Source of the DNA: a bacterium
Lineage (GTDB): Bacteria; Desulfobacterota; DSWW01
Reading direction: 5' to 3'
DNA: 61,056 bases
Assembly: GCA_015486285.1 (NCBI GenBank)
Contig: WFRX01000097.1
Coordinates: 1 to 61,056, forward strand
Each line of letters begins with the position of its first letter. The stretch's first letter is position 1. Position numbers and translations under genes: made by a program. Under the pieces are notes generated by a model that did not search any database, was not told the DNA's origin, and was given only the letters and a program-made list of their open reading frames with translations. Of this stretch, positions 20,574 to 48,271 are shown piece after piece.

Positions 20574-20907
20574 AAACAGTCCATTCCTTCGTTACGAGCC
20601 GTCTCCCGGCCCAATGTGTCACGGGATCCCCACCTGCGCGGTATGACGATGCGTCCGAGGCTCGGGTCGACCCTCTTCCATCGGACTCCGCGCCTGCGCG
20701 GCATGACAGCATTTGCGGCACGTTGCGCGATGGCGGACATTGCGAGCGCAGCGAAGCAATCTCCCGGCGTATTGCGCCTTTCCCCATGGAGCCGGGGGAT
20801 TGCCGCGTCGCCTCCGGCTCCTCGCAATATCCGGAGGGTGCCGATAGACTCCCGGGAACCCATTGCCCGGCTGTTCCGGTCCCTTTGCCCGGCTCAACCA
20901 TCTCGCC
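20574..20907. repeat. mosaic of REP-like palindromic elements (two families) filling the nuoE-nuoF intergenic gap
   Basis: Family 'GTCAT.CCGCGCAGG..GGATCC' occurs at 20624-20647 and 20683-20707. Family 'GGACATTGC..GCAATCTCCCGG' occurs at 20735-20767 and, inverted, at 20794-20834. Confidence 0.75.
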
Positions 20908-21501
20908 CTAATCCCCGGATTCTTGTTTCTCTTGCTCGCGCTCCCTCTTTTCCGCAAGCTCGACGGCGAGCATAATCCCGTCCACGGTCGTGGGCGTCAT
21001 GTTTCCGTACACTTCCTCCCCCACAACCGCCACAGGGGCCATGGCGCAGCAACCCACACAGGCGACCCGGTCCAGGCTGTACAACCGGTCCTCGGTCACC
21101 TCCCCTTCGCTGATGCCCAGCTTCGTCTCCCATACATTGAGAATCGCGTTTCCGCCCTTGATGTGGCAGGCGGTTCCCATACACATCTTCACAGGATGTT
21201 TCCCCGGCGGGATCATGCGGAACTGATTGTAAAAAGAGGCGACACCAAAAACGGCGGCCGGGGAAATCTCTTTTGCCCGCGCCACTTCGATCATGGCCTC
21301 CCGGGGAAGGTATCCAAAGTGTCTCTGGACCTTCTGCAAAAGGGTAACCAGGCTGGTATTCCTCAAATCCGTAGATTCGAGAATCCCCCTCATCTCCTGC
21401 AGGACGTCCAACTCGTCTTCCACTGCTTGCGCCATAGCTTCCCCACTGATCTGCGAATCAACGAAACGGATTGAATTGTTCAGTATAGCATTTTTCGCCA
21501 C
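20908..21501 (-). CDS. NuoE-like thioredoxin-fold [2Fe-2S] subunit (HydC/HndA/HoxE type)
   Basis: CMGTACHIKG..(36)..CVGCCAMAP is the NuoE Cx4C..Cx3C pattern. The GTG start at 21501 has a GGGGGAGA SD; an alternative ATG lies at 21435. Confidence 0.9.
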   Translation of the reverse strand: MAKNAILNNSIRFVDSQISGEAMAQAVEDELDVLQEMRGILESTDLRNTSLVTLLQKVQRHFGYLPREAMIEVARAKEISPAAVFGVASFYNQFRMIPPGKHPVKMCMGTACHIKGGNAILNVWETKLGISEGEVTEDRLYSLDRVACVGCCAMAPVAVVGEEVYGNMTPTTVDGIMLAVELAEKREREQEKQESGD

Positions 21502-22088
21502 TGCTTTTCATCTCCCCCGTGACACTTTTCCCCTTGGTCCTTCTTCCCTTCACCCTTTCAGGAGGACCGGTGCTGGTTCCCGATTACCCCTGGCGCGGAC
21601 ACGGCAAGCGGGGCGAAGCAATCTCCCGGAACCGTGTAACACCGCAATCCCCGAAGGGGTCATTCCCCCAATCTTGAGACACGCAATGATGGGGAGGCAG
21701 GGCACGCCTCGGGGTTGGGAGATTGCTTCGATCGCCTCCGGCTCCTCGCAATGTCCGCCAACGGACAGCGGAACGCCCGCAAGCGACCATAGGAAGCGAT
21801 CCATTTCATAGGGACAGGGGAACATCCACAAACGGCCATACGCAGCGCCCCAGCACGTACGGACATTGCCAGCGAAGCAATGTCCGCCAACGGACAGGGG
21901 AACGTCCCAAGCGGCCATACACAGCGCTCCATTATGTACGGACATTGCGAGCGAAGCGAAGCAATCTCCCGGTCCATTGCGCCTTTCCCTTGACATAACC
22001 GGCGATTCTCCCTAGCTTATTAGGCTGTCCAGCGACCCCCTGAAAACGGGCTTCTCACACGCCTCCCGGCTAATTCACAGGATCGCAC
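21502..22088. repeat. REP-like element cluster with degenerate tandem units
   Basis: Palindromes occur at 21613-21629 (partial), 21717-21756, 21861-21885 (perfect GGACATTGC-cagcgaa-GCAATGTCC) and 21940-21972. Between them are three degenerate ~55-bp units (GGACAG.GGAAC.TCC..AA.CGGCCATAC.CAGCG). A solo arm resembling the hairpin family lies at 21569-21590 (GGTGCTGGTTCCCGATTACCCC). Confidence 0.7.
21990..22018 (+). promoter_or_regulatory. candidate sigma-70 promoter (TTGACA-17-TAGCTT) upstream of panE
   Basis: Perfect -35 hexamer ~95 nt upstream of the panE ATG; the -10 is weak. Pattern match only. Confidence 0.3.
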
Positions 22089-26056: not shown

Positions 26057-26866
26057 ATGGCCGTTCCAAGAGCGCTTGTCTTGACAGGATACGGGATCAA
26101 CTGCGACCGGGAAACCGCCTTTGCCTTTGAACAGGCCGGCGCGGAGGCCCGGCGGGTGCATGTGAACGACCTGATCGACGGGCACGACCGCCTGGACCGC
26201 TACCAGATCCTCTCGTTTCCGGGCGGGTTCTCGTACGGAGACGACATTGCTTCGGGCAAGGTCCTGGCCAACCGGGTGAAGACCCATCTGGACGACGCGA
26301 TCCAGCGGTTCATCGAGGGAGGAGGGCTCGTGCTGGGGATCTGCAACGGCTTCCAGGTGATGGTCAAATACGGCCTCCTCGGATCCCCGCAGGGGGTGGT
26401 GGAGGCGCAGCGGTCCACCCTGACGTACAACGACTCGAGCCGCTATGAAGACCGATGGGTTCATCTCCTCCCTGAAAAGGGGCGTTGCGTGTTCACTCGT
26501 GGGATCGAGAAACTCTACCTGCCCGTTGCCCACGGGGAGGGGAAGTTCTTCACCGACCCCGGCACGCTGGCAGGGCTCGAGGCGGCCGGCTGTGTCGTCC
26601 TTCGTTACGCGGACGAGGAAGGGCGGGCCGCGGGAGGCCGCTTCCCGTGGAACCCGAACGGGTCGTTGAACGACATTGCCGGCGTCTGCGACCCGTCGGG
26701 CCGGGTCTTCGGGCTGATGCCCCACCCGGAGAGACATCTGCACTTCACCCAGCACCCCCTCTGGACGCAGCTCGCAGAGGAATGCAGGCGGGCGGGAAGG
26801 CGCCTGCCCGAGGAGGGACACGGCATGGCCATCTTCCGCAACGCGGTCACGTATTTCACGGACTAG
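26057..26866 (+). CDS. purQ: phosphoribosylformylglycinamidine synthase glutaminase subunit PurQ
   Basis: GATase-1 motifs (GICNGFQ with catalytic Cys; MPHPER). It immediately follows purL. Confidence 0.9.
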   Translation: MAVPRALVLTGYGINCDRETAFAFEQAGAEARRVHVNDLIDGHDRLDRYQILSFPGGFSYGDDIASGKVLANRVKTHLDDAIQRFIEGGGLVLGICNGFQVMVKYGLLGSPQGVVEAQRSTLTYNDSSRYEDRWVHLLPEKGRCVFTRGIEKLYLPVAHGEGKFFTDPGTLAGLEAAGCVVLRYADEEGRAAGGRFPWNPNGSLNDIAGVCDPSGRVFGLMPHPERHLHFTQHPLWTQLAEECRRAGRRLPEEGHGMAIFRNAVTYFTD

Positions 26867-26911
26867 CGGTTTGACTTGCGAATACCACTATGATTCAGGA
26901 GTATCTCACTG

Positions 26912-27019
26912 TTCGGTGCTGTTCCCGATTCCCTCTCCGATTTGCTTGGGCTCCGTCTCCCCCTCTCCCGACAAAGTCGCCCGGCACAAATCTCCGAGGG
27001 AATCGGGAACAGCACCGAA
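26912..27019. repeat. long-hairpin repeat, copy A (conserved ~50-nt core, 24-bp perfect outer stem)
   Basis: TTCGGTGCTGTTCCCGATTCCCTC ... GAGGGAATCGGGAACAGCACCGAA flank the core GATTTGCTTGGGCTCCGTCTCCCCCTCTCCCGACAAAGTCGCCCGGCACAAATC. See findings. Confidence 0.85.
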
Positions 27020-27053
27020 AAACGCCGCCTCTGTCCGGAAACCACAGCGACGC

Positions 27054-29345
27054 TTGATTGTCACCCCGCTGGGAACCCTCTCGGCAAAGGAAAGAAATCA
27101 AAGGAGCACGGCCATAGCACGTTTCGGCAATCGCTACCATTACGTAACGGGTCTCATCGGTCTTGCGCTTGTCCTGTTCGCGATGACAGGCTGCACGAAC
27201 AACCCGTACCGTCCTTCCGAAAAGGGGAAGAACTACCTGTACAGCAGCTTCAGCGAGCCCCCCAAGCACCTCGACCCGGCGGTTTCCTATTCCTCCGATG
27301 AGTACGACTTCATCCTCCAGATCTACGAGCCTCCCTTGCAGTACCATTACTTGAAACGCCCCTACGAACTGGTCCCCCTGACCGCCCGCGAGGTGCCCGC
27401 GCCGAAGTACTACGACCGGGACGGGAAACGGCTCGAAGGGGACCCCCCTTCCGAAAAGGTCGCCAGGGCGGTCTATACCATCCGCATCCGGAAGGGAATC
27501 CTCTACCAGGAGCATCCCTGCTTCGCCAGGGATGCGGACGGCGCACGGGTCTATGACGACCTGACGGAAGCACAGCTCAAGGGGATCCGGGACATCAACG
27601 ACTTCCCGAAAAAAGGAACCCGCGAACTGACCGCCGCGGACTATGTGTACCAGATCAAGCGTCTTGCCCATCCGAAACTCGACTGCCCCTTGTTCAGCAC
27701 CATGGCGCACTACATCCTGGGCCTCGACGAACTGGCACAGGACCTCCAGGGAGAACTGAACCGCATCCGCGCCGAGAGGAGAAAGGGGCAAGGGGCCCTG
27801 TACAACCAGGAGAGAGACGAGCGGGAACACCCGATCCGGCTCGACCTCGACGCGTTTCCCCTGAAAGGGGCCCGCGTGGTGGGCCGGTACACGTACGAAA
27901 TCACGCTGAAGCGCAAATACCCCCAGTTCGTCTACTGGCTGGCCATGCCTTTCTTCGCACCCATGCCGCGCGAGGCAGACCGGTTTTTCGAGCAGGCCCC
28001 CCTCATCGCCCGAAACCTGAAGCTCGACAATCGTCCGGTGGGCACGGGCCCCTACAGGATGGAAACCTTTCGCCCGAACCGGGAGATCGTCCTGGCTCGA
28101 AACAAGAACTTCCACGGCGAAACCTACCCGGAAGAAGGGGAACCCGGAGACCGCGCGCTGGGGCTCCTCGACGATGCGGGCAAACCGCTTCCCTTCATCG
28201 ACAAGGCGATCTACAAGCAGGAGAAGGAGGCGATCCCACGCTGGAACAAGTTCCTGCAGGGATACTACGATACCTCCGGCATCATCAACGAGGTCTTCGA
28301 CCAGGCCGTACAGATGAACACCGAAGGGGACATCGAGCTTTCCGACACCATGAAAAAGAGGGGAATCCGGCTCCTGAAGGCCGTCACCACGGTGACGTAC
28401 TACTTCGCCTTCAACATGCTGGACGATGTGGTGGGCGGCTACACGCCGGAGAAGCGGAAGCTGCGCACGGCGATCTCGATCGCCGTGGATATGGAGGAAT
28501 GGATCCAGATCTTCGACAACGGCCGCGGCGTGCCCGCCCAGAGCATCCTGCCGCCGGGCATCTTCGGTTACCGGCCCGGACGGAAGGGGCTCAATCAATA
28601 CGTATACACGTGGAACGAGGAAGCAGGGGGGCCGCAGAGGCGATCCATCGAAGAGGCGAAGCGGCTCCTGGCGGAGGCGGGATATCCGGGGGGAAAGGAC
28701 CGGGAGGGGAACCCCTTGGTGATCCGCTTCGACACGGCCTGGACCGGGGCCTCCGCAAAGCCCCGCATCGATTGGCTCAGGAAACAGTTCAAGAAACTCG
28801 ACATCGACCTCCAGATTCGCCAGACCGATTACAACCGCTTCCAGGACAAGGTCAAGAAGGGGGATTTCCAGATCCTCTTCTGGGGCTGGCACGCGGACTA
28901 CCCGGATCCGGAAAACTTCCTGTTCCTCCTGTACGGCCCCAACGGCAAGGCGAGGCATGGGGGCGAGAATGCCGCGAATTATGCCAATGCCGCCTTCGAC
29001 TCCCTCTTCCGGCGGATGGAGTCCATGCAGAACAACCGGGAGCGGATGGCGATCATCGGCGAGATGCTCGAGATCGCGGGACGGGACGCGCCGATGATGT
29101 GGGGATACCACCCCGTGGCCTTCGGCCTGTACCATGAATGGTACCGGAATGCCAAGCCCATGACGATCGGCGGAAACACGCTGAAGTACAAGCGTATCGA
29201 CCCCCTGCTCCGGGAGCGGGAGCGGGAGGCCTGGAACCGGCCGATCCTGTGGCCCGTGGCCGCCTTCTTCGCTCTCCTTCTCCTGGCCGGGCTGCCCGCG
29301 GTCTACAAGGCCTGGCTGCGCCAGCGAAAGGGCGGTATGCCATGA
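27054..29345 (+). CDS. ABC transporter substrate-binding lipoprotein (family 5, peptide/nickel; YejA-like, enlarged)
   Basis: Lipobox-like LVLFAMTGC and a family-5 SBP body. The stop overlaps the permease ATG (ATGA). The start is uncertain: no in-frame ATG lies upstream of the signal peptide. Candidates are TTG 27054 or a non-canonical ATA at 27114, 7 nt after AAGGAG. The track start (26871) lies inside hairpin repeat A. Confidence 0.75.
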   Translation: MIVTPLGTLSAKERNQRSTAIARFGNRYHYVTGLIGLALVLFAMTGCTNNPYRPSEKGKNYLYSSFSEPPKHLDPAVSYSSDEYDFILQIYEPPLQYHYLKRPYELVPLTAREVPAPKYYDRDGKRLEGDPPSEKVARAVYTIRIRKGILYQEHPCFARDADGARVYDDLTEAQLKGIRDINDFPKKGTRELTAADYVYQIKRLAHPKLDCPLFSTMAHYILGLDELAQDLQGELNRIRAERRKGQGALYNQERDEREHPIRLDLDAFPLKGARVVGRYTYEITLKRKYPQFVYWLAMPFFAPMPREADRFFEQAPLIARNLKLDNRPVGTGPYRMETFRPNREIVLARNKNFHGETYPEEGEPGDRALGLLDDAGKPLPFIDKAIYKQEKEAIPRWNKFLQGYYDTSGIINEVFDQAVQMNTEGDIELSDTMKKRGIRLLKAVTTVTYYFAFNMLDDVVGGYTPEKRKLRTAISIAVDMEEWIQIFDNGRGVPAQSILPPGIFGYRPGRKGLNQYVYTWNEEAGGPQRRSIEEAKRLLAEAGYPGGKDREGNPLVIRFDTAWTGASAKPRIDWLRKQFKKLDIDLQIRQTDYNRFQDKVKKGDFQILFWGWHADYPDPENFLFLLYGPNGKARHGGENAANYANAAFDSLFRRMESMQNNRERMAIIGEMLEIAGRDAPMMWGYHPVAFGLYHEWYRNAKPMTIGGNTLKYKRIDPLLREREREAWNRPILWPVAAFFALLLLAGLPAVYKAWLRQRKGGMP

Positions 29346-30652
29346 CCGCCTACGTGATTCGCAGGGCCCTGTATGCAATTCCGATCGTGATCGGCGTCAA
29401 CTTGATCACCTTTATCCTGTTTTTCTTCGTCAATACCCCGGACGACATGGCCCGCGCGCACCTGGGGGCGAAACGCGTGACCGAAGAACAGATCTCCCGC
29501 TGGAAGCGCGAGCGCGGCTACCTGTACCCTTATTTCTACAACGACGGCTGGTCCGAGACCGCGGTCCGCCAGGTGAACGGAGCCGACGTATCGCTCCGTC
29601 TGAAAGCGCTGCCGGCGGGGGCGTACCGGCTGCGGATCGAGGCCCCGGAAGCGGACAAGGGACGCCTGGCCGTCGAAATGTCGACGGATGAAACCGCCCG
29701 CCTGGTCCTGCCGGATCGATCCGATCGAGGCCGGCTCCAAATCGACCTGGCGGACCGGACCCGGCGGACCTTCCCCTTCCGGCTCGAGTCGACGGACGGG
29801 ACACTCCACCCGATCCGCCTGTCATTCCGGCCCTCGAAGGGCGCCCCGATGGCCGTCGTGCGCCTGGACTTCAAGGAAGACCTTTCCCCGGCGGAGCGCT
29901 TTACGGAGACGATCTTCTGGAAGAAATCCGTGCAGCTTCTCTTGTTCCGGTTCGGCACTTCGGATGACGGCCGCAACATCGGCCGGGAAATCCGCAGCCG
30001 GATCACACCGAGCCTCGCCGTGACGCTGCCGATCTTCCTCATCGGCCTGTTCGTGAACATCACCGTGGCGGGCATCCTGGCCTTCTACCGGGGGACCTAT
30101 CTCGACTTCTGGGGGGTCGTCACATGCGTCGTGATGATGTCCGTGTCGATCCTGTTCTACGTCATCGGGGGCCAGTGGCTCCTCGGCAAGACCCTCCGGC
30201 TCGTGCCCGTCTCGGGCTACGATACCGGCATCCACGCCATCAAGTTCGTTCTTCTCCCCGTGCTGATCGGCGTCGTCAGCGGGATCGGCAACGGCGTGCG
30301 GTGGTATCGCACGATCTACCTGGAAGAGATGGGCAAGGACTATATCCGAACGGCCCGGGCCAAGGGGCTCCCCGAGTCGCTCGTTCTGTACAAGCACGCG
30401 CTGAAGAACGCGATGATCCCCATCCTGACGGGCGTCGTGGTGACGATCCCGTTCCTGTTCATCGGCAGCCTGGTACTCGAATCCTTTTTCGCCATCCCGG
30501 GCATGGGCAGCTTCACCCTGGAGGCGATCCAGCGCCAGGACTTCGCGATCGTCCAGGCCATGGTCTTTCTCGGCTCGGTCCTCTATATCGTGGGCCTGAT
30601 CATGACCGACATCTCCTACACCCTCGTGGATCCGAGGATCCGTCTGGAGTAA
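29342..30652 (+). CDS. ABC transporter permease (DppB/YejB-like) with ~130-aa periplasmic insertion
   Basis: N-terminus MTAYVIRRALYAIPIVIGVNLITFILFF and the EAA-type loop (YIRTARAKGL). There is an extra beta-rich segment between TM1 and TM2. Confidence 0.9.
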   Translation: MTAYVIRRALYAIPIVIGVNLITFILFFFVNTPDDMARAHLGAKRVTEEQISRWKRERGYLYPYFYNDGWSETAVRQVNGADVSLRLKALPAGAYRLRIEAPEADKGRLAVEMSTDETARLVLPDRSDRGRLQIDLADRTRRTFPFRLESTDGTLHPIRLSFRPSKGAPMAVVRLDFKEDLSPAERFTETIFWKKSVQLLLFRFGTSDDGRNIGREIRSRITPSLAVTLPIFLIGLFVNITVAGILAFYRGTYLDFWGVVTCVVMMSVSILFYVIGGQWLLGKTLRLVPVSGYDTGIHAIKFVLLPVLIGVVSGIGNGVRWYRTIYLEEMGKDYIRTARAKGLPESLVLYKHALKNAMIPILTGVVVTIPFLFIGSLVLESFFAIPGMGSFTLEAIQRQDFAIVQAMVFLGSVLYIVGLIMTDISYTLVDPRIRLE

Positions 30653-30664
30653 GGAGCCGAACGT

Positions 30665-32080
30665 ATGATCCGATTGTCCTTCGACGCCTTCCGCCTCGTT
30701 CTCCTGCCCACGGATCTCCTCCTCTTCCTGCTTCTCTTCGCAACGGCCGGCTTCCTGCTGCATGCCCGCCGGAAGGAATACTACCGGGCAGCATGGCGCC
30801 AGGTTCGGACAAAATCCCTTGCCATGATCTGCATGGGCATCTGCCTCTTGTACGCGTCGGTCGCCCTCATCGACTCGGTACGGTTTCAGAAGCGGGCTTC
30901 CGAGGTCGACGGCACGGAACAGAAGACCGAAACGGGATCCCCGGTTTACAGGACCGAGGTCCTCACGCTGCTCGACGCCCTCTGCTCCCGTCTGCTGGAA
31001 CATACCGAGAAGACATTCTCCGCCCCCTTTGCGGTGCATCAGTTCACGAAAGAGACCATCGAGCTTCCCGGGGGCAGGACGATCCGAGCCTATCCGAGGT
31101 TGCGGTACGGGGGTGCATCCCTCACCGACCCCCGACAGAAGTGGCCGCAGATCGGCCGGCTCGCCCTCGAGGGCCTGCTTGCCGGAGCCGGTGCGGGCGG
31201 GCTCCTGATCGCCCTGGCAGTCGGCCTTTTCGCGGCACGACGACGATTTTCGCAGGGAACCGATTCGACCGGGCCGGTTCGTTCCGGGCTCAGGGTGGGG
31301 GCCTTCCTGGCGGCCGTGGCCATCCTCGTCGGGATCCTGGCGAGCCTTTCCACGGAATACCACGTCTTCGGTACGGACCAGGTCGGCCGCGACGTGCTCT
31401 ACCGTGCGCTCAAAGGCTGCCGGGTCGGTTTGATTGTGGGGACCTTGACCACCCTCATCGCAACGCCTCTGGCCATCCTTTTCGGGATCATGGCCGGCTA
31501 CTTCGGCGGCCGGATCGACGACATCATTCAATACCTCTACACGACCCTGGACTCGATCCCGAGCATCCTGCTCATCGCCGCCGCGATGCTGATCGTCACG
31601 ACCCGCGTCGACGTACAGCAGGCCGCCCTGGCCTCGGACAGCCGGCTCCTCTGGCTCTGCGTGGTCCTGGGAATCGGAAGCTGGACCGGGCTGTGCCGCC
31701 TTCTTCGGGGCGAGACGCTGAAGGTTCGGGAGAACGAATACGTGGAAGCGGCCGAGGCCTTCGGGGTGAGCCGAATCGAGATCATGTTCCGCCATCTTCT
31801 GCCGAACGTTATGCACATCGTTCTGATCTCGACCATCCTGCGGTTCAGCGGGCTCGTCCTCGCAGAGGCGGTGCTCGCCTATGTGGGCATCGGCGTGGAC
31901 CCCGCTATGGAAAGCTGGGGCAACATGATCAATGCAGCGCGCCTGGACATCTCGCGCGACCCGATCGTCTGGTGGAACCTGCTGGCCGCCTTCGTATTCA
32001 TGTTCGGACTGGTCCTGCCCGCCAACATCTTCGGAGACGCGGTTCGGGACGCGCTCGATCCGAGATTGAAGACAGAGTAG
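30665..32080 (+). CDS. ABC transporter permease (DppC/YejE-like) with ~190-aa N-terminal extension
   Basis: The C-terminal 280 aa are a BPD_transp_1 core (GTDQVGRDVL.., YVEAAEAFGVS). The N-terminal extension has additional TM segments. Confidence 0.9.
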   Translation: MIRLSFDAFRLVLLPTDLLLFLLLFATAGFLLHARRKEYYRAAWRQVRTKSLAMICMGICLLYASVALIDSVRFQKRASEVDGTEQKTETGSPVYRTEVLTLLDALCSRLLEHTEKTFSAPFAVHQFTKETIELPGGRTIRAYPRLRYGGASLTDPRQKWPQIGRLALEGLLAGAGAGGLLIALAVGLFAARRRFSQGTDSTGPVRSGLRVGAFLAAVAILVGILASLSTEYHVFGTDQVGRDVLYRALKGCRVGLIVGTLTTLIATPLAILFGIMAGYFGGRIDDIIQYLYTTLDSIPSILLIAAAMLIVTTRVDVQQAALASDSRLLWLCVVLGIGSWTGLCRLLRGETLKVRENEYVEAAEAFGVSRIEIMFRHLLPNVMHIVLISTILRFSGLVLAEAVLAYVGIGVDPAMESWGNMINAARLDISRDPIVWWNLLAAFVFMFGLVLPANIFGDAVRDALDPRLKTE

Positions 32081-32090
32081 AAAAGCGATC

Positions 32091-34187
32091 ATGGAATCAG
32101 CGGCTGAAAAAACACGAGAGCGGAACGAGGAGCCTATCCTCGAGGTACGGGGCTTGAAGACCTACTTCAGGACATCGGAAGGGATCGCCCGCGCCGTGGA
32201 CGGCATATCCTTCCGGATCCGGGCGGGCGAGTCCTATGCGCTGGTCGGGGAATCGGGGTGCGGCAAGAGCGTGACCGCCCTTTCCATCATCCAGCTCGTC
32301 CAGGGGCCCTCGGGGTACATAGCGGGAGGAGGCATCGCGTACCGGGGGAGGGACATCGTTCACATCCCGGAGATCGAAAAGCGCGCGCTCCGCGGCAACG
32401 AGATCTCCATGATCTTCCAGGAGCCGATGACCAGCCTCAACCCGGTCTTCACGGTGGAACAACAACTCACAGAGGTGATACGGCGACACCGGAGAGTGGA
32501 CCGGCAGGAGGCGCGGCACGAAGCGCTCCGCATGCTGGAACGGGTCAAGCTCCCGGAACCCCGCCTGCGGTTGAAGGAGTACCCCCACCAGCTCTCCGGC
32601 GGGATGAAGCAGCGCGTGATGATCGCCATGGCCCTGGCGTGCCGGCCGGGTCTCCTGATCGCCGACGAACCGACCACCGCACTCGACGTGACGATCCAGG
32701 AACAGATCCTCGCCCTGATGCGGGAACTTCGCAGGGAGTTCGGCACCGCCGTGCTGCTCATTACGCACGACCTGGGCGTAGTCGCCGAGAATGCGGACCG
32801 CGTGGCCGTCATGTATGCGGGCAGAATCGTGGAAGAAGGCAGCCTGGAACAGATCCTCAGGGCCCCGGCGCACCCGTACACGGTGAAGCTGCTCGCTTCG
32901 CTCCCGTCCGCCGGGAAACGCCATGAAGCGCTCCAGACCATCGAGGGACGGGTCCCGCCGCCCACCCGCTTCCCCGAGGGCTGCCGTTTTGCACCCCGTT
33001 GTCACAAGGCGATGGAGATCTGCAGGGAGGTCGATCCGGAACTCGTGTACGTCGGAAACGGACACCGGACCGCCTGCGTCCTCTATGATGAAGGGAGACT
33101 CGGGCGCAAGGCGTCTCCCGAAGAGGTTCGGGCCCCGTCCCCGCCGAGACACCGGGACCACGGCTTCGCCGGCGCCGTTCCCCTGGTCAGGGTGCGGGGG
33201 CTGAAACTCTGGTTCCCGATCCGGCGCGGCCTCTTCAAGAAGGTCGTCGGCCAGGTGCGTGCCGTGGACGGCGTGGACCTGGAAATGCGGAGGGGCAGGA
33301 CGTCGGCGCTCGTGGGCGAATCCGGCTGCGGCAAGACGACCCTCGGCAAGGCGGTCCTGCAGCTCCTTCAACCGAGCGGGGGAAGCGTCGAATTCGATGG
33401 AACCGAACTCACGGGGCGCTCCAGGTCCGCCTTGAAGCCCTTCCGCCGCAAGCTCCAGATCATCTTCCAGGATCCTTTCAGCTCCCTCGATCCGCGCATG
33501 ATGATCGGCGACATCCTGACGGAAGGCATGGCGGCGCACCGGATGGGGAGATCAAGGCCGGAGAGGCTGGCTCGAGCGAAGGAACTGCTGGACAAGGTGG
33601 GACTGGACCCGCAGATGGTATACCGTTACCCCCACGAGTTCTCCGGCGGGCAGCGTCAGCGAATCGCCATCGCGCGGTGCCTGGCGGTCGAACCGGAGTT
33701 CATCGTTTGCGACGAGGCCACCAGTGCACTGGACGTCTCCGTTCAGGCCCAGGTCATCAACCTCCTGAAAAGGCTTCAGGAGGAGATGAATCTCACGTAC
33801 CTGTTCATCACCCACGATCTGTCGGTGGTCGAATACCTGGCAGACGAGGTCTGTGTGATGTATCTGGGACGGATCGTCGAAAGGGGCCTGAGCGAAGAGA
33901 TCTTTTCGAGCCCGAGGCATCCCTACACGCGGGCACTCCTCTCCGCGGTGCCCCGGATCGATCCGGATGCCGGCGTAAAGAAGATTCGTCTCGCGGGCGA
34001 TACGCCTTCACCGGCCCATCCCCCGGCGGGCTGCCACTTTCATCCCCGCTGCCCGGAGGCGATGGAAAGATGCTCGGGCGAGTATCCACGCCGATTCGAG
34101 TTCTCGGGGACCCATTCCGCCTGTTGCTGGCTGTATGCAGGACAAGGGTCAGGGATCGGGGATCAGGGATCATCAGGTCCAAGGTAA
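32091..34187 (+). CDS. fused double ABC ATPase (YejF-like), each half with an oligopeptide-type C-terminal Cys domain
   Basis: Two sets of Walker A (GESGCGKS / GESGCGKT), signature (LSGGMKQR / FSGGQRQR) and Walker B (LLIADEPT / FIVCDEAT). Two HPYT..C..PRC tails. Confidence 0.9.
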   Translation: MESAAEKTRERNEEPILEVRGLKTYFRTSEGIARAVDGISFRIRAGESYALVGESGCGKSVTALSIIQLVQGPSGYIAGGGIAYRGRDIVHIPEIEKRALRGNEISMIFQEPMTSLNPVFTVEQQLTEVIRRHRRVDRQEARHEALRMLERVKLPEPRLRLKEYPHQLSGGMKQRVMIAMALACRPGLLIADEPTTALDVTIQEQILALMRELRREFGTAVLLITHDLGVVAENADRVAVMYAGRIVEEGSLEQILRAPAHPYTVKLLASLPSAGKRHEALQTIEGRVPPPTRFPEGCRFAPRCHKAMEICREVDPELVYVGNGHRTACVLYDEGRLGRKASPEEVRAPSPPRHRDHGFAGAVPLVRVRGLKLWFPIRRGLFKKVVGQVRAVDGVDLEMRRGRTSALVGESGCGKTTLGKAVLQLLQPSGGSVEFDGTELTGRSRSALKPFRRKLQIIFQDPFSSLDPRMMIGDILTEGMAAHRMGRSRPERLARAKELLDKVGLDPQMVYRYPHEFSGGQRQRIAIARCLAVEPEFIVCDEATSALDVSVQAQVINLLKRLQEEMNLTYLFITHDLSVVEYLADEVCVMYLGRIVERGLSEEIFSSPRHPYTRALLSAVPRIDPDAGVKKIRLAGDTPSPAHPPAGCHFHPRCPEAMERCSGEYPRRFEFSGTHSACCWLYAGQGSGIGDQGSSGPR

Positions 34188-34202
34188 AAGGGCGAGGCCG
34201 AT

Positions 34203-35135
34203 ATGCATCGTGTGCTGATCACCGGGGCCAGCGGGTTCGTGGGCGAGAACCTTGCCCACCGTTTCGCGCGGGACACCGAGCCGGCCCTGGCCTACGGAAG
34301 GCACCGACCGCGGGCGTTGTCGGACAGGGCCTTCTCCGTCGACCTTTCCGTGCGGGGGGACTTTTCGAGGGCCCTCGAAGATCTGCATCCGGACACGGTC
34401 ATCCACACGGCGGCCATGACCAGCCCGGACCTCTGCGAGAAGAACCCGCGGATAGCGCGCGCCGTCAACGTGGAAGGCACCCGCGAGGTCGCGCGGTGGG
34501 CGGAGGCGAAGGGCGCCAGGATGATCTACTTCTCCACGGACCTCATTTTCGACGGCAAGCAGGGCTGGTACCGGGAAGAGGACACGCCCGGGCCCTTGAA
34601 CCTCTACGGGAGGACAAAACTCGAGGGAGAAGAGCAGGTCCTTCGAATCTGCACCCGGTGGGTGATCGTTCGGATGGCCTTGAGCTACGGGGAGACCCGG
34701 GGGGCCGGAGGAGACTGGACCCTGTCGATGCGCAAGGCCCTCAGCGCGGGCGGGACGCTCCGCCTGTACACGGACCAGTTCCGGACCCCGGCATACATAG
34801 GCGACACGGCGGAGGCCGTCTTCCGGCTCGCCCGGCACGACAAGAACGGGATCTACCACATGGGCGGCGCGGACAGGATCAGTCGCTACGGTTTCGGGCG
34901 GGTGTTCTGCCGCCTCTTCGGCCTGGAGGCAGAACGATTCGTGCCGGTCCGGATGGAGGAGGTACGGATGGACGCGCCCCGGGCAAAGGACTGCTCCCTC
35001 GACACGGAAAAGATCCGACGGGAAATCGGCCTGGCCCCGTGCGGCGTGGAACAGGGCCTGCGCCGCCAGAAGCAGGCGGAAGCCGCCCTCGACAAGGGGA
35101 ACGAATCCCCGCAGCGGCGGAGCGGCCCGGCCTGA
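34203..35135 (+). CDS. SDR-family NAD(P)-dependent sugar reductase (RmlD/dTDP-4-dehydrorhamnose reductase-like)
   Basis: ITGASGFVG Rossmann motif and YGRTKLEGE (YxxxK). Length and layout are RmlD-like; no rmlABC genes nearby. Confidence 0.7.
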   Translation: MHRVLITGASGFVGENLAHRFARDTEPALAYGRHRPRALSDRAFSVDLSVRGDFSRALEDLHPDTVIHTAAMTSPDLCEKNPRIARAVNVEGTREVARWAEAKGARMIYFSTDLIFDGKQGWYREEDTPGPLNLYGRTKLEGEEQVLRICTRWVIVRMALSYGETRGAGGDWTLSMRKALSAGGTLRLYTDQFRTPAYIGDTAEAVFRLARHDKNGIYHMGGADRISRYGFGRVFCRLFGLEAERFVPVRMEEVRMDAPRAKDCSLDTEKIRREIGLAPCGVEQGLRRQKQAEAALDKGNESPQRRSGPA

Positions 35136-35391
35136 CCCCTGCCCCGCCCCCCGACCCTGCACCGTGACCGCCTGTTCACAAAAGGCAGCGCCGGAAAACG
35201 GCCCAAAACGACAATCCTCTCTGCACGGTTCGCGCGAAGGGCACCGCAATCACCCGGTCGAAGCCATGCCGCCGTGCTGCCGGCCTGCTTCGGAAGACGC
35301 AGGGACCCTTTCGGAACGATTCTTGCCTCTCCCGCCCCTGTAACCTGCCCGACTCCTCTTTGCGTATACAGTACAGCCCGGAGGAAGGGAC

Positions 35392-36849
35392 ATGAAGGTC
35401 TCGTGCAGGATCGCCGGCAGCTTCACAGGCAGCGGACCCGGCACGGGCGCAAAGGCGTCCGGCCCCGTCCCCACCCTCGCGAAGAAGATGCAACAGAGCC
35501 GGTTCCTCATCACGGGATGCTACCTCCTGCTCGGCGGCCTTGCGTACGGCATCGGTGCCGTGGAAGACAACATGGCAAGGGTCCTCTTTGCGATCGCCGT
35601 CATGCCGCTTTCGAGCCTCTTCTCGCTCTGGTTGATGCACAGGCTGCCGGGAGTTCAGTCAACCATCACCGCGGTCAACCTCGTGCTGGACACCCTGCTG
35701 ACCTCCTGGGTCATCTTCTGGACCGGCGGCACCCTGAGCCCCTGCCTCCCCTTCTATCTCACCACCGTAATGGCCGCCTCCTTCCGGTTCGGCCCCCGCG
35801 GCAGCCTGCTTTCCACCCTGCTCGCCGTCGCCTGCTATTGCGTGGTGGGCGCCCTGGGCCCGGATCCGCCGGCCACCCTTCACGCCGCAGCCGGCATGAC
35901 CCTGCGGATCGCCTTCCTGTTCGCGGCGGCGGGCTTCGGAATTCGCGCCCTCCACCAGAACCTCGAACGCTACCGGAAGGAGAAGGCCCTGAACCGCAGC
36001 CTGGAAGAGACCAACCAGGCCCTCGCCGCCGCCTACCAGGACCTCCGGACGACGCAGGACCAGCTCCTCCACGCAGAAAAGCTCGCCTCCCTCGGACAAC
36101 TCGTCGCCGGAGTGGCCCATGAAATCAACAACCCCATCAGCTTTGTGTACGGAAATCTCGTTCATCTCAAGACATACGTACAGCGACTGGAATCGCTGCT
36201 CTCCCTTGACGACAACCTGCCCCTGTCCGGCCCGGTTCTCGAACGGCGGGAGGCGATCAAGAAGGCCATCGATTACGATTACCTGATGGAAGACCTCCAC
36301 GGCGCTCTCGGGTCGTGCTTCAAGGGGGCGAAGCGGATCCAGGGGATTGTCGGCTCGCTGCTCGACTTCTGCCGTATGCGAAAGCCCGCGTTCCACCCCG
36401 TGGACCTCCGGGAGACCATCGAAAACGCCCTGTGCATACTGGGAAGCAAGATCCCGGCAGACGTTCAGGTCCGACGCGAATACACGGCGGGGGACTGTAC
36501 GATCCGGGGCGATGCGAACCAGCTCAGCCAGCTCTTCTTGAATCTCCTCGCAAACGCCCTGGACGCACTCGAGGGCCGGGGCACCATACGGGTAAGGGCC
36601 TTCAGCCGGCGGGACGGGGACAACCGGGAGAGGGTATTCGTAGAGGTGGAAGACAACGGGCCGGGCATCCCCCCTGAGGATCGAGCCCGGATCTTCGAGC
36701 CCTTCTTCACGACCAAGGACGTGGGAAGGGGCACCGGCCTGGGCCTGTCGATCGCTTACAGCATCGCCAAACGGCACAAAGGCGAACTGGCCGTGCAGAC
36801 CGGCTCCCCCCGGGGCGCTCTCTTTCGCGTCTCGCTGCCCGCGGCCTGA
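35392..36849 (+). CDS. membrane-bound sensor histidine kinase
   Basis: Multiple N-terminal TM helices, H-box ([12 protein letters not shown]) and N/G boxes ([25 protein letters not shown]). The ATG at 35392 is preceded by GGAGGAAGGG; an alternative ATG lies at 35488. Confidence 0.85.
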
Positions 36850-36995
36850 GAAAAAAAAGGAAAAGAAAAGAAAAAAGGGGACAGACCTATTTTTCTCCCT
36901 TTCGCGTCTCGCTGCCCGCGGCCTGGAAAAAAGCAAAAGGGAAAAAAGGAGAAAAAAGGGAGAAAAAAGAAAAATAGGTCCGTCCCCTTTTTTCC
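36818..36995. repeat. duplicated gene-3'-end + polypurine tracts + 20-bp inverted repeat
   Basis: 31-nt direct repeat CTC(T/C)CTTTCGCGTCTCGCTGCCCGCGGCCTG at 36818-36848 (end of the kinase CDS) and 36895-36925. Each copy is followed by an A/G-only tract. IR GGGGACAGACCTATTTTTCT (36877-36896) pairs with AGAAAAATAGGTCCGTCCCC (36968-36987) and is followed by T6. Confidence 0.8.
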
Positions 36996-37043
36996 TGTTG
37001 GGTACGATCCCAGCCCTTTCCGAAGGCAGCCGATGGCCGTATA

Positions 37044-37958
37044 ATGGAGATCTTTCACCTTTTCAACCATCCGGGGAAACGCAGCGTGAACATCGATCTG
37101 CACATCCACACCACCGCCTCGGACGGGTCGATGACGCCCGCACAGGTCGTGGAGGAGGCGATACAGGCAGGCCTGAGCGTCATCTCGATCGCAGACCACG
37201 ACACGACAGGCGGCGTCGCAGCAGCGCTTGAGACGCGGCACGCCCAGGAGATCGTCGTCGTGCCCGGCGTGGAAATCAGCGCTTCGCACCCTTCCGGAGA
37301 GGTCCACATCCTGGGCTACTGGATGGATTACGGGAACCCGGCCTTCCAGGCCTTTCTGGAAAGGCCCCGCTCCACGCGCGTCCCCAGGATGATCGAGATG
37401 TGCAGGCGCCTGCGCGGTGTCGGTCTCCAAGTCCGGCCCGAAGAGGTCTTCGAAGAGGCCGGAGGCACCGACGCCGTGGGCAGACCGCACCTTGCCAGGG
37501 TATTGCTCGCCAAGGGCTATGTGAAGGATATGGAAGAGGCCTTCCGGAACTATCTCACGAAAGGGACCCCCGGCTACGTCAAAAGGGTCAAGAACCGGAC
37601 GGCCGAGGCCATCGCCATGATCCACCGCTTCGGAGGCATCTCGGTGATCGCCCACCCGGGGCTGCTCGAAGACCCGGGGCTCGTCGATCACCTCATCCGC
37701 GAAGGGGTCATGGGCATCGAGGTACTCTGCCACGAACACGACCGCGAGGCCGTGGAGAAATACTCGGAGATAGCGGACCGAAACGGGCTGCTCAAGACCG
37801 GCGGGTCGGACTACCACGGCGACATGCTGGGGAAATCTTTCCGCCTCGGGGACCTCAAGGTGCCGTACGAGTACTATCTCGCCCTGAAGGAGGCGAAAGA
37901 AAAAAGGACAGGGGTCAGGGATCAGGCCGCGCGCTGTCAGAAAGCGGGACGCCATTGA
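37044..37958 (+). CDS. PHP-domain phosphoesterase (TrpH/YciV-like)
   Basis: IDLHIHTTASDG, ADHDT, the HP.. motifs and GSDYHG are present. The start is ATG 37044 (no SD; a TATAAT overlaps it) or GTG 37086 (GGGGAAA SD). Confidence 0.85.
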   Translation: MEIFHLFNHPGKRSVNIDLHIHTTASDGSMTPAQVVEEAIQAGLSVISIADHDTTGGVAAALETRHAQEIVVVPGVEISASHPSGEVHILGYWMDYGNPAFQAFLERPRSTRVPRMIEMCRRLRGVGLQVRPEEVFEEAGGTDAVGRPHLARVLLAKGYVKDMEEAFRNYLTKGTPGYVKRVKNRTAEAIAMIHRFGGISVIAHPGLLEDPGLVDHLIREGVMGIEVLCHEHDREAVEKYSEIADRNGLLKTGGSDYHGDMLGKSFRLGDLKVPYEYYLALKEAKEKRTGVRDQAARCQKAGRH

Positions 37959-37974
37959 GGCGGCCGGCATCTGG

Positions 37975-38069
37975 TGCTGCCTCCTATCGCGCTTCGGTTT
38001 GTGCAGGGCGACTTTGTAGGGAGAGGGGGAGACGGAGCCCAAACAAACCGGGGCGCGACAGGGCAGCAC
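37975..38069. repeat. long-hairpin repeat, copy D (inverted orientation)
   Basis: The reverse complement carries the core TTTGTTTGGGCTCCGTCTCCCCCTCTCCCTACAAAGTCGCCCTGCACAAA. The outer stem segments pair as GTGCTGCC/GGCAGCAC, TCGCGC/GCGCGA and GGTTTG/CAAACC. It lies between the convergent PHP and gpmI stops. Confidence 0.8.
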
Positions 38070-38071
38070 AT

Positions 38072-39673
38072 TCAACCGCCCGCAAGGGCGCGGTAGGCCT
38101 TTTCGATCCTGTCCCAGTTGTGCTCCCGGTCGAGCGCCCAGTATCGGCCCATGACCGTAACCACCTCCCCCAACCCGAGCTCCCGGGCCTTCTGCTCCAC
38201 CTTTTCCACATAGATCGCCCCGCTCGCAGGCTGCTCCCCCCTTCTGCCCAGCAGGCTGTGGATGCAGACCCTGCGCACCCCTTCCCGCTTCGCCATCTCC
38301 ATCAGGGCGAAGAGATGATCCAGCGAACCGTGGGAGCTGTAGAACGAGACGATCCCGAGCAGGTGGAGCGTCTTTCCTCCTTGCCGGCAGGGCGCCATGG
38401 CCCAGCGGAAGGCCTCGTTTTCGTAGAAAGCGCCCGTGCGGATCGCCTCATCGATGCGCACCCGGTCTGAAGGGACCACCCGCCCCGCCCCGAGGTGCAG
38501 ATGCCCGGCCTCTGAATTCCCCACGCTCCCGGCGGGCATCCCGACGGCCCTGCCCGCGGCCTCCAGCAAGGTCCACGGGCAGGCCGCCATGAGCCGGTCC
38601 ATGACAGGCGTCGGCGTACGGGCGATCAGATTCCCCTCCTCATCCGCCCGGTGGCCCCAGCCGTCGAGAATCAGCAAGAGCACCCGGGGCGGTCCGGCAA
38701 ACAGGGCCCCCGCATCGATTCCCTTGCCCGCCCCCTTCAGCAGGCTGCTGCCCGTCATCTCCTCCGGCACGGGAATGCCGAAGATCTCCAGGACCGTCGG
38801 GGCCACATCCACGAGCGAGCCCCCCGACCGGAGCGCGAGCGGCCTCGCCGACCCGCCGTCCGGCGGGATGACGAGGAAGGGCACCGGGCTGTCGCTGTGC
38901 CCCGTGTCGATGGTCCCATCCGGGTACAGTCTCTTTTCCACGGTCCCGTGATCCGCCGTAATCAAGGTCACGTAGCCCTGCCTCTTCGCCTCTTCGACCA
39001 CGATTCCCGTCTGGGCATCCACCACGCGGATCGCCGTTTCCACGGCCGCCTCGTTCTCCATGTGTCCCACCACGTCCACGTTGGCAAAATTGCCCAGGAC
39101 GAAGGGGCAGGTCCCTTCTCGCAGCCTCGCCGTGATGGCATCGGCCACCTCGGAAGCGCTCATCTCCGGAAGCTCATCGAAGTTTTGAACCTCCCGGCTG
39201 GATGGAATGAACACCCTTTCCTCCAGGGGAAAGGGGTCCGCAGCCTTTCCGTTGAGGAAGTAGGAAACGTGAATCGCCTTTTCCGACTCCACGACCCGTA
39301 CCTGGCGTATTCCCTGCCTGCTCAACACTTCCCCAAGGGTGTTCTTGATCTTCCCGATCGGGGGAAACCCCACCCGAACGGGCAGGCCCGCCTCGTATTC
39401 GATCATGGTGGCCATGCGGGCCGGACGGCCGGAAGCCCTTTCAAAGTGGCTGAAATCAGGCTCCACGAGCGCCTTCGTCAGTTGCACTTCCCTTTCACCG
39501 CGGATATTGTAGAAGATTACGCACTCCCCTTCCCCGATCGCGCCGAGGAGTCCTCCCCGGTCATCGACGCTGACGATCGGCTCGAAAAGCTCGTCTTCCT
39601 GGCCTTCTGCGTACGCCTGTCGCACAGCCTCGGCCATGCTCGCCACGTCCCTGCCCATTCGGACTTTTCTCAT
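38072..39673 (-). CDS. gpmI: 2,3-bisphosphoglycerate-independent phosphoglycerate mutase, circularly permuted domain order
   Basis: All iPGM hallmarks are present but in permuted order. C-terminal-type motifs (FYNIRGEREVQ, NFANVDVVGHMEN, ITADHG, EEMTG) come first. The canonical N-terminus (LLILDGWG, TPVMD, GNSEAGHLHLGAGR, SSHGSLDHL, GRYWALDREHNWDR) occupies residues ~330-533. Confidence 0.85.
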   Translation of the reverse strand: MRKVRMGRDVASMAEAVRQAYAEGQEDELFEPIVSVDDRGGLLGAIGEGECVIFYNIRGEREVQLTKALVEPDFSHFERASGRPARMATMIEYEAGLPVRVGFPPIGKIKNTLGEVLSRQGIRQVRVVESEKAIHVSYFLNGKAADPFPLEERVFIPSSREVQNFDELPEMSASEVADAITARLREGTCPFVLGNFANVDVVGHMENEAAVETAIRVVDAQTGIVVEEAKRQGYVTLITADHGTVEKRLYPDGTIDTGHSDSPVPFLVIPPDGGSARPLALRSGGSLVDVAPTVLEIFGIPVPEEMTGSSLLKGAGKGIDAGALFAGPPRVLLLILDGWGHRADEEGNLIARTPTPVMDRLMAACPWTLLEAAGRAVGMPAGSVGNSEAGHLHLGAGRVVPSDRVRIDEAIRTGAFYENEAFRWAMAPCRQGGKTLHLLGIVSFYSSHGSLDHLFALMEMAKREGVRRVCIHSLLGRRGEQPASGAIYVEKVEQKARELGLGEVVTVMGRYWALDREHNWDRIEKAYRALAGG

Positions 39674-39760
39674 GATTCAGAATTCCCTTTCAGTCGTTTT
39701 GTAATCCGTTGCATGGTGCGCTGAAACCGAGCCTGGGCATGTATCGGGAAGGTCCGGGAT

Positions 39761-39865
39761 TGCAGTGCTGTCCCTGGTTCCCTCTCCGATTTGCTTGGGC
39801 TCCGTCTCCCCCTCCCTCGAAGTCGCCCTGCACAAATCTCCGAGGAAACCAGGGACAGCACTGCA
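39761..39865. repeat. long-hairpin repeat, copy B
   Basis: TGCAGTGCTGTCCCTGGTTCCCTC ... GAGGAAACCAGGGACAGCACTGCA (one C-A mismatch, which is G-U on the opposite strand) flank the conserved core. It lies between the TPR lipoprotein stop and the gpmI start. Confidence 0.85.
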
Positions 39866-39982
39866 CGATTCGAACTCTGCCATGGAAGCATAGCGACGGC
39901 TTCGCCTCCTCGCAATGTCCCCCACTGCACCGAAAGATTCCCCCCTGCCCTTTCACCTTCCCCCTTCGACCCGATCCGTGTG

Positions 39983-40570: not shown

Positions 40571-40586
40571 GGGCACAATGTGCTCA

Positions 40587-40612
40587 GGGATCCCTGCCTT
40601 CGCAGGGATGAC
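40587..40612. repeat. REP-like palindrome (GGGATCCCTGC-cttc-GCAGGGATGAC)
   Basis: Same family as 20624-20647 and 20683-20707. It translates as the frequent spurious peptide VIPAKAGIP. Confidence 0.65.
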
Positions 40613-40640
40613 AGATGGTGTGGCCACTGGACTCTCCCTG

Positions 40641-48231: not shown

Positions 48232-48271
48232 AGAGGCCCCTCTCCCTTCCACCCCCCCCGTTGAGTTCGAG

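Follow-up and report, generated by a model that had tools for sequence, protein, structure and literature searches.

The hairpin at positions 26912-27019 of contig WFRX01000097.1, a stretch of 61,056 nucleotides from a bacterium of the Desulfobacterota (lineage DSWW01) that is called here the window, forms the central part of mobile palindromic repeats which make up a family not described before, found in Syntrophobacteria-type Thermodesulfobacteriota. An earlier note, made from the letters of the window, had described a dispersed ~100-bp hairpin, present in four full copies (A-D) and one half copy (E), all of them intergenic. Reading of the sequence confirms the five copies where they had been placed, to which a sixth, decayed one (F) is added, and the neighbouring open reading frames (ORFs), which have clear Pfam identities, leave all of them between genes. 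Across the family, copies land exactly at stop codons with the pyrimidine-rich strand of their core in sense, the pairing of a long stem is kept while its sequence drifts, and several sites occupied in the window are empty in related genomes. We lean towards a non-autonomous element, resembling both miniature inverted-repeat transposable elements (MITEs) and REPINs (hairpin-forming doublets of repetitive extragenic palindromes, REPs), which would be handled as a folded single strand and inserted strand-specifically.

One core in two architectures

Copies were gathered by exact words of the core, using one genome per species and an additional scan of metagenomes; the genomes are fragmented metagenome-assembled genomes (MAGs). 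The resulting loci, labelled with the letter L and a number, amount to 1.4 Mb, those of the MAGs being 8-kb pieces, and ORFs were called in them mechanically. After removal of duplicates the family counts at least 73 type-1 and at least 19 type-2 non-redundant copies (the types are defined below), the metagenome scan having contributed at least some 75 more copies before this removal. Among the matches listed, dozens of copies belong to a few Thermodesulfobacteriota MAGs: most of them lie in Syntrophobacteria bacterium SG_15_bin2 (JAQYVQ01) and CAYZMM01, and some in JANQFG01, CAZSUQ01 and CAVORA01. The other matches of the scan are at the chance level expected for a 17-mer. The tolB-pal region of the window is 75-80% identical to JAQYVQ010000212.

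The window has a density of one copy per ~10-15 kb. The left core motif (17 nt) is found there five times at up to one mismatch (0.30 expected by chance) and the 17-nt right core motif four times (0.17 expected). A covariance model, built from 45 copies and run on the window without filters, gives strong matches to A, B, C and D only, the opposite strand scoring 19.5-56 bits. The earlier note had not recognised a described RNA family, and this stands. A scan of the window with Rfam 15 at the gathering thresholds returned only the transfer-messenger RNA (tmRNA), and permissive scans of A and of C/E returned only sub-threshold matches to generic miRNA hairpins. No match was found in the phage and plasmid collections searched, and a literature search by topic and by core sequence gave nothing on the family.

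Two architectures share the core, type 1 (copies A, B and F of the window) and type 2 (C+E and D). The core is 47-50 nt long, asymmetric and pyrimidine-rich (TTTGCTTGGGC-UCCGUCUCUCCCUCCCCC(UAC)AAAGUC-GCCCGGCACAAA), and is closed by two short conserved helices, GAUUUG/CAAAUC and UUGGGC/GCCCGG. Around it stands a helix of 23-25 bp with drifting sequence and conserved pairing. In type 1, outer arms of ~45 nt are added, which end on TA(G) and bring the whole to an imperfect palindrome of ~205-210 bp, with the consensus (c)TAG-TGGGnnGAC-nTGGAAATnTCGCTATGTTTC-AGGAGAGnCTTGCC-[GTTCGGTGCTGTCCnGGGTTCCCTC-TCCGA-core-TCTCC-GAGGGAACCCnGGACAGCACCGAAC]-AACTnGAGCTCTGCCnGG-GAAACATAGCGAnATTTCC-nnGTCGACCCAC-TAG. 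The ~100-bp hairpin is thus real, but for A and B it is only the inner half of the palindrome. The contrast with classical MITEs drawn in the earlier note had been judged on this half only, and type 1 does have outer inverted-repeat arms.

Terminal inverted repeats are found in type 1 only, with the consensus (c)TAGTGGGnnGAC...GTCGACCCACTAG. Both consensus ends carry TA or TAG, the right end of A reading TG. The left end is mostly nTAG, with a variable first base (C>G,A,T), and its TAG doubles as a stop codon. The motifs CGTC and CTAC are located inside the core, not at the end of the element.

Type 2 has neither outer arms nor terminal repeats. Its stem, GTGCnATCnCCTGTYnCGnnnnnGA, is related to that of type 1 but distinct, and is followed on the 3' side by a C-rich tail, CCAGAKGCCCCGCnCC... 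In the type-2 alignment, some copies have a partial second core ~50 nt downstream. The stem of copy C, first taken as unrelated to the others, is instead shared with D in this second subfamily, and E, though present, is not a separate half copy but the second core of the type-2 unit of C.

Copies A-D fold far better than shuffled sequences on either strand (z from -6 to -10). Taken alone, each arm, left or right, of A and of L062 folds no better than shuffles (z = -0.8 to +1.5). As a further detail of the arms, most copies have TCTCCGA directly repeated on both of them, as though a 7-bp segment had been inverted. In the variants L005, L141 and L120, full pairing (CTCTCCGA...TCGGAGAG) closes the 3x3 internal loop (TCC/TCT).

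Placement of the copies at stop codons

In the type-1 alignment, a stop codon occupies the column just before the left arm. Same-strand ORFs with a minimum of 100 codons end at the left end only in 39 of the at least 73 type-1 copies, at both ends in 9 and at the right end only in 2. When the copies assessable on both sides are considered, the ratio is 33 versus 2 (p = 3.7e-8), and an independent metagenome set gives 18 sense versus 2 antisense copies. Type 2 shows a similar arrangement, 8 of the at least 19 copies beginning 0-2 nt after a same-strand stop codon (TGA, TAA or TAG) and one copy having the mirror arrangement. The orientation relative to genes had been described as not constant. 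This is true within the window, where A (purQ), D (gpmI) and F (tolR) follow a stop codon in sense and B and C are antisense between co-directional genes, but across the family the orientation is strongly biased. The opposite strand of the core, GGA-rich, had also been read as Shine-Dalgarno-like; this reading is not favoured, the pyrimidine-rich strand being sense to the abutted gene in 39 of the 41 informative type-1 copies. A bias in replication direction within the window was considered and rejected, A, B and C being on the + strand but D and F on the - strand.

The stop codons abutted by type 1 are TAG in 32 cases, TAA in 8 and TGA in 8, versus a background of 30% TAG, 15% TAA and 55% TGA for the long ORFs of the same loci, which indicates that TA(G) belongs to the junction. 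Since each end of type 1 begins with G, insertion by an enzyme that targets TA symmetrically would leave the stop codon intact in both orientations. The observed bias thus calls for insertion that is itself strand-specific or for selection that acts on orientation.

Empty and shared insertion sites

Orthologous sites of A, B and D are empty, which shows that the elements are insertions. The gene order Lon-TPR-gpmI-PHP is retained in CAYZMM, JANQFG, an ENA assembly and CAYLMK, where the covariance model finds no copy; B and D are absent at the orthologous loci of CAYZMM, JANQFG and the ENA assembly. In L091, no nucleotide separates the convergent stop codons of gpmI and PHP (TGA|TCA), and D is also absent from L089 and L090. 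Similarly, the TPR-gpmI spacer measures 20 nt in L091 and 70 nt in L090, versus 309 nt in the window, where it contains B; according to the model, L089-L092 are free of copies. The purQ ortholog of L093, the protein of which is 86% identical, lacks A; it has TAG at the same codon, followed by unrelated sequence, indicating that A entered at or just after a pre-existing stop codon.

Five insertion sites are common to different genomes. The clearest case is the ortholog in L074, which holds the C+E unit including its half core. When C of the window and L074 are compared, 6 of 25 stem positions differ, all six being compensated, the core differs at 3 of 50 positions and the 25 nt upstream are identical; the shared flanks are so idiosyncratic that they prove a single ancestral insertion. 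For type 1, a copy is at least as similar to paralogs as to its positional ortholog, and a targeted insertion could have struck the same stop codon twice. Positional orthologs are consequently a weaker argument for compensation in situ than first appeared, only the pair of window C and L074 being secured. Decayed copies are also found: F, E and the left arm of L025.

A position directly 3' of ORFs and in their orientation, a structure conserved above the sequence and a likely single-strand fold are also what would be expected of attC-like recombination sites of integron cassettes. We nevertheless consider this reading very improbable and effectively refuted. The copies are single, ~10 kb apart among housekeeping genes (purQ, gpmI, tolB-pal, tolR), with no cassette arrays and no integrase; their ends, GTTCGG...CCGAAC, are the reverse of the R''/R' core sites, RYYYAAC...GTTRRRY, which are lacking; their conserved part is central, not terminal; and the genes upstream are syntenic orthologs, some accompanied by the element and some not.

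Conservation of pairing in the stem

The earlier claim that pairing is kept rather than sequence is borne out by a covariation test on 33 type-1 copies, with 500 column shuffles and controls in which the partner is slid. In the whole structure, 95.2% of the cells are paired and 102 are double-changed. The 24-bp outer helix of the hairpin is 93.6% paired, with double changes in 22 of its 24 pairs. None of the 500 shuffles reaches the observed value on any of five measures, and pairing drops to 33-48% when the partner is slid by 1-3 columns. The conserved inner helices are invariant and thus uninformative on covariation. Several stem pairs take three or four pair types; stem position 16 (26925/27006 in A, 39774/39852 in B) is CG in 15 copies, GC in 10, TA in 14 and AT in 2.

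In the window, near-perfect pairing of the arms had been attributed to every full copy. This applies to A and B (91% and 88% over 33-nt arms) and to C (100% over 29-nt arms), but not to D, where the pairing is poorer, with two C.A non-standard pairs and an internal loop. The compensated differences between A and B had been quoted correctly, B carrying in addition one C.A mismatch. Position 16 is also the N of GTCC-N-GGG / CCC-N'-GGAC, hypervariable and yet Watson-Crick paired in 41 of 42 copies; the CCNGG context may matter.

Conservation decreases from the centre to the ends. Over 60 type-1 copies, the mean pairwise identity is 0.93-0.95 in the core, a value inflated by ascertainment on core words, then 0.85-0.90 in the proximal stem, 0.61-0.64 in the distal stem and 0.56-0.57 in the outer arms, for a baseline of 0.46-0.49 in unrelated flanks. 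The sole unbiased sample, composed of the window minus A and of the flanks of the loci, has an intact core in B, C, D and two extra copies of the loci, and a degenerate one in E and F. The distal stem is near saturation, yet its Watson-Crick pairing stands at ~94% for the copies from genomes and ~89% for those from metagenomes. With such divergence in well over 100 independent copies, the family is well suited to telling selection on the fold apart from palindrome correction.

Recombination between arms and, probably, between copies

In 8 of the 53 type-1 copies that could be classified, and in 1 of 14 type-2 copies, the core runs opposite to the asymmetric arms or tail; this flip/flop implies recombination between the arms. 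In the four flipped type-1 copies that abut a stop codon the core is still in sense, and it is antisense in one flipped type-2 copy. Examples of flipped cores are L130, L163, L176, L061 and L043 for type 1, and L150, L108 and L098 for type 2.

The loop is a hot spot of nested insertions, which it tolerates or attracts between CTACAA and AGTC. It can hold a 22-nt hairpin (L004, L060, L066), a 50-nt hairpin (L009) or an insert of 113-114 nt which belongs to another hairpin repeat family (GAAAAGGTGTCAGGAACCTTTTT...AAAAGGTTCCTGACACCTTTTC) and is found in both types (L007, L029, L073, L079). The latter repeat also occurs alone, as short REP-like hairpins, and is seen at L073:4114-4300. In two metagenome loci, L128 and L143, a type-2 unit stands directly after the reverse complement of a truncated type-1 right half (...GGAGATTTGTGC|GTGCAAT...), which indicates that family members insert into, or recombine at, one another's cores.

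Two other views of the core were rejected. Insertion of the core into pre-existing palindromes, considered since both orientations of the core relative to the arms are seen, was discarded as the main explanation, no core-less arm pair having been found; the outer-arm motif without core is absent from the genome loci searched. A coding core is excluded by its length variants of 47, 50, 52, 72 and 100 nt, which are not all in frame.

In another reading, the complementarity of the stem would be a by-product of correction at the DNA level, without any selection on the fold, either by intramolecular template switching or gene conversion (quasipalindrome correction), or by overwriting of whole hairpins from other copies. 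Besides the inverted cores, several results are in agreement with this view. Double changes of the transversion type are as common as those of the transition type (~50:50), and one-sided G.U states are rare. At stem position 8, a C.C intermediate is found in 11 of 42 copies, between C-G (20 copies) and G-C (10). The loop form, GGCA/GGCG and stem positions 8, 16 and 23 are mosaic among copies, and type-1 positional orthologs, as seen above, resemble each other no more than they resemble paralogs.

As a complete explanation, correction of this kind is nonetheless improbable in our opinion. It should affect the whole palindrome, yet copy-specific complementarity is largely lost in the outer arms: the right arm of a copy beats every foreign arm as a match to its left arm in 31 of 42 copies for the inner stem, and in just 6 of 42 for the outer arms. 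It also leaves unexplained both the near-invariant asymmetric core and the strand-specific placement. Moreover, the ~62-nt spacer between the arms would be long for template-switch correction, judging from the quasipalindrome work of Ripley and Lovett. The many double changes of the transversion type, the frequent C.C intermediate, the mosaicism and the flipping do show that arm-to-arm or copy-to-copy conversion contributes, and it may explain much of the apparent compensation.

A possible host-used RNA module at mRNA 3' ends

One possibility, compatible with mobility although in our view rather unlikely, is that the core and its hairpin form an RNA module used by the host at mRNA 3' ends, spread by MITE-like vehicles and kept by purifying selection. 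In this case it is the host that would select for the fold, at the level of RNA. Candidate roles could be: (i) a factor-dependent terminator (for instance Rho-type, with a C-rich loop), (ii) a 3'-end stabiliser, (iii) a protein-binding site, or (iv) a hairpin acting on the terminating ribosome. Liang, Rudd and Deutscher reportedly found in 2015 that REPs of E. coli located within 15 nt of a stop codon affect translation.

The sense placement of the pyrimidine-rich strand described above is in line with such a module, as is the fact that the helix begins at the stop codon. Core and helix persist where the presumed termini of transposition degrade, and this above all makes the data fit such a module about as well as they fit the single-strand element that we favour. 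One core is carried by two vehicles, type 1 and type 2. The C/E unit and its spacer are conserved between genomes whose flanking genes are only 75-80% identical. Furthermore, of the copies that lie in likely operons, the two intact ones, B (TPR-gpmI) and C (tolB-pal), are antisense, and F, in sense within the tol operon, is broken, which is the pattern expected of an element that is polar on its sense strand. Finally, all four flipped type-1 copies that abut a stop codon have kept their core in sense.

Other results fit less well. No copy has a U-tract or the signature of an intrinsic terminator, and the latter function was rejected: none of the eight terminator-like sites in 26500-40500 coincides with A, B or D, and the right flanks have no T-run. 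The rarity of G.U intermediates and the large proportion of transversions, half of the double changes, are atypical of RNA helices. Wobble-type mismatches do not favour the sense strand either, with 22 for the core strand versus 52 for the other. This excess collapses to 22 versus 31, which is not significant, once two inherited variants are removed; a strand call on this basis was thus abandoned, mismatch types giving no reliable call and hence no decision between RNA and single-stranded DNA. In addition, B and C, two intact copies of the window, are antisense, as is the single flipped-core type-2 copy, and related genomes lack the element at the same genes.

More tentatively still, the family could be a mobile structured 3'-untranslated-region (3'-UTR) element, an RNA module with an invariant loop on a helix free in sequence, exploited by the host and delivered by strand-specific insertion to the stop codons of dozens to hundreds of genes. 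It might then serve as a factor-dependent terminator, as a site for the ribosome or an RNA-binding protein, or as a source of C-rich, 3'-derived small RNAs, and selection would maintain its orientation despite recombination and flipping of the arms. If this RNA reading were true, it would show how a mobile element can furnish many genes together with one structured 3' end, and would provide a model, directly open to testing, of how 3'-UTR regulation arose in bacteria.

A mobile element with a proposed strand-specific insertion

The reading that we favour, with slightly more confidence than doubt, is that of a MITE/REPIN-like, non-autonomous element. It would be handled as a folded single strand, and a trans-acting enzyme would read the invariant core together with a helix of any sequence. 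Insertion would be strand-specific, next to TAG/TAA on one strand, as in single-strand transposition of the HUH/Y1 type and unlike that by symmetric TA-targeting DDE enzymes. Copies with a broken helix would cease to propagate and then decay, as F and E may have done, which could leave compensated stems across the family; arm-to-arm or copy-to-copy conversion may contribute to this compensation.

Several results weigh against this mechanism. No transposase is found among the window ORFs examined. Nor did a Y1-type transposase, for which the earlier note had proposed to look, come to light: a phmmer search of the 1.4 Mb of loci with an IS608 TnpA query, a weak test, found no IS200-type TnpA. 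As the arms do not fold by themselves, the element has neither the end hairpins of IS200/IS605 nor REP units of the REPIN type. Its termini are the least and its core the most conserved parts, so that selection in situ for a host function fits at least as well, even though the conservation of the core is partly inflated, copies having been ascertained by exact core words. Type 2 abuts TGA, TAA or TAG and shares no common end sequence, and a single rule of a TAG target therefore fails to account for both types. A TA target duplication cannot be distinguished from the palindrome itself. Lastly, as about half of the double changes are of the transversion type and character states are mosaic, conversion between arms or copies is indicated as much as selection.

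If the favoured mechanism is true, the family would be a repeat recognised by its shape and a short invariant loop, and inserted strand-specifically at stop codons. It would point to a single-strand transposition system in an uncultured syntrophic lineage, and it would be a useful marker for strain typing and for assembly breaks in MAGs.

Copies of the window and neighbouring repeats

Table 1. Position and composition of the copies found in the window.
Feature	Position	Strand	Details
Copy A, complete type-1 element	26866-27069	+	204 bp; inner hairpin 26912-27019, core 26941-26990
Copy A, outer arms	26866-26911 and 27020-27069	+	From family alignment and consensus
Copy B, type-1 element with degraded outer arms	39716-39925	+	~210 bp
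Copy B, inner hairpin	39761-39865	+	Core 39790-39836 (47-nt form); from alignment
Copy C + E, single type-2 unit	48132-48313	+	Hairpin 48132-48231, core 48157-48206
C + E, subparts	C-rich tail from 48232; partial second core E 48283-48309	+	From sequence and repeats
Copy D, type-2 element	37959-38069	-	Hairpin 37975-38069, core 37998-38047
Copy D, tail	37959-37973	-	15 nt; one spacer base, 37974; from sequence
Copy F, decayed type-1 element	50691-50817	-	Found by outer-arm motif search

Copy A starts on the TAG stop codon (26864-26866) of a purQ-like gene (26057-26866), which encodes a GATase_5 protein by Pfam identity, and lies in sense orientation. Its end-to-end fold is closed by CUAGCGG/CCGCUGG, and its covariance-model score is 132.7 bits on the + strand versus 56.3 on the - strand. 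Copy B (117.6 bits) is antisense to both its neighbours, a TPR gene (39983-40627, - strand) and gpmI, which starts at 39673 on the - strand. The C+E unit (112 bits for C) is likewise antisense to both its neighbours, between the stop codon of tolB (48316-48318) and the start of pal (48067).

Copy D (88.3 bits on the - strand) starts in sense 2 nt past the TGA stop codon of gpmI (38072-38074), and its tail reaches the stop codon of the convergent PHP gene (37956-37958). The spacer of 113 nt is thus wholly occupied, with the layout TGA-AT-[hairpin]-C-[tail]-TCA, which is exactly one type-2 unit. Copy F starts in sense on the TAG stop codon (50815-50817) of tolR/exbD, encoding an ExbD/TolR protein. 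Its left outer arm and left stem are recognisable, its core is degenerate (TTTGCCTGGATGCCGTGTCCCCCTC, 50740-50716) and its right half is gone; the covariance model gives a weak partial match at 50648-50746 on the - strand.

A second, unrelated GC-rich repeat (CGGACATTGCGAGCGnAGCGAAGCAATCTCCCGG / TCGCCTCCGGCTCCTCGCAATnTCCG) is present in direct and inverted orientation at 20734-20835, 21596-21646, 21732-21778, 21829-21989 and 59702-59749. It clusters on both sides of a gene for a NuoE-like [2Fe-2S] protein (20908-21501, - strand), with one occurrence near the tmRNA gene, and the right outer arm of copy B contains a stretch related to it (39896-39921). The cluster at 20.7-22.0 kb was rejected as the site of a parent transposase, as it flanks the NuoE-like gene and not a transposase. 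The tmRNA gene itself (60018-60377, 216 bits) specifies the tag peptide ANDYDFAMAA.

An AT-rich palindromic element is located at 36818-36994, between a histidine-kinase gene and the PHP gene. Its 27-nt arms (36870-36896 / 36968-36994) are 96% complementary, it gives a generic covariance-model match of 25.5 bits, and it is overlapped by a direct repeat with a spacing of 77 nt (36818-36855 / 36895-36932).

Comparison with known systems

The family resembles REPINs in being made of dispersed, intergenic repeats of ~100-200 bp that form one long hairpin with compensatory changes on both sides, persist at orthologous sites and leave decayed remnants comparable to singlets. The kept pairing had been read in the earlier note as pointing to selection on the fold or to arm-to-arm conversion; both explanations are still live, but compensated hairpins in mobile repeats were already known from REPINs (Bertels and Rainey, 2011; PMC3116915). 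The REP termini of the GTAG type often provide the TAG stop codon of the flanking ORF (Di Nocera, 2013; PMC3733652). In the same way, two thirds of the type-1 copies that abut a stop codon have it supplied by their nTAG left end. The differences are nevertheless clear. In REPINs, the conserved 16-mers or REPs are terminal and the middle is variable, whereas here the middle, an asymmetric core of 50 nt, is invariant and it is the ends that decay; the arms do not fold by themselves as REP palindromes do; and the placement is strongly strand-biased. An REP doublet in the strict sense was therefore rejected. No REP-associated tyrosine transposase (RAYT) is found among the window ORFs examined, and RAYTs may be too distant from the IS608 TnpA query used on the loci.

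The TA-flanked bacterial MITEs, such as the Correia element of Neisseria, RUP and ERIC/YPAL, are imperfect palindromes of 100-200 bp with terminal inverted repeats and TA ends, which lie near genes, are co-transcribed with them and are polymorphic between strains. The type-1 end TAGTGG resembles the Correia end TATAGTGG. The presence/absence polymorphism at the sites of A, B and D and the terminal inverted repeats of type 1 are also reminiscent of MITEs of the DDE type. However, symmetric insertion at TA predicts both orientations, in contrast to the 39 versus 2 seen here, the termini are poorly conserved around an invariant core, and type 2 lacks terminal repeats. No parent insertion sequence with matching ends was found in the loci or in the phage and plasmid searches.

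The palindrome-associated transposable elements (PATEs) of the IS200/IS605 group, and HUH systems more generally, share with the family a strand-specific insertion 3' of a short target, the lack of an obligatory target duplication and the recognition of a structure. Single-strand behaviour of the HUH type is what best matches the placement data. PATEs differ in having separate subterminal hairpins at their left and right ends; no TnpA or TnpB gene was seen here, by the weak test described above; and in the window the copies are oriented according to the genes and not to a single direction of replication. An element of the IS200/IS605 type, with distinct hairpins at its ends, was rejected, the arms alone not folding. 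With attC sites, the family has in common a structured site directly downstream of ORFs, in the orientation of the ORF, and a structure conserved above the sequence. Finally, the family differs from these known repeats by an invariant loop with drifting ends, two architectures that share one core, a near-absolute sense placement and a core that flips.

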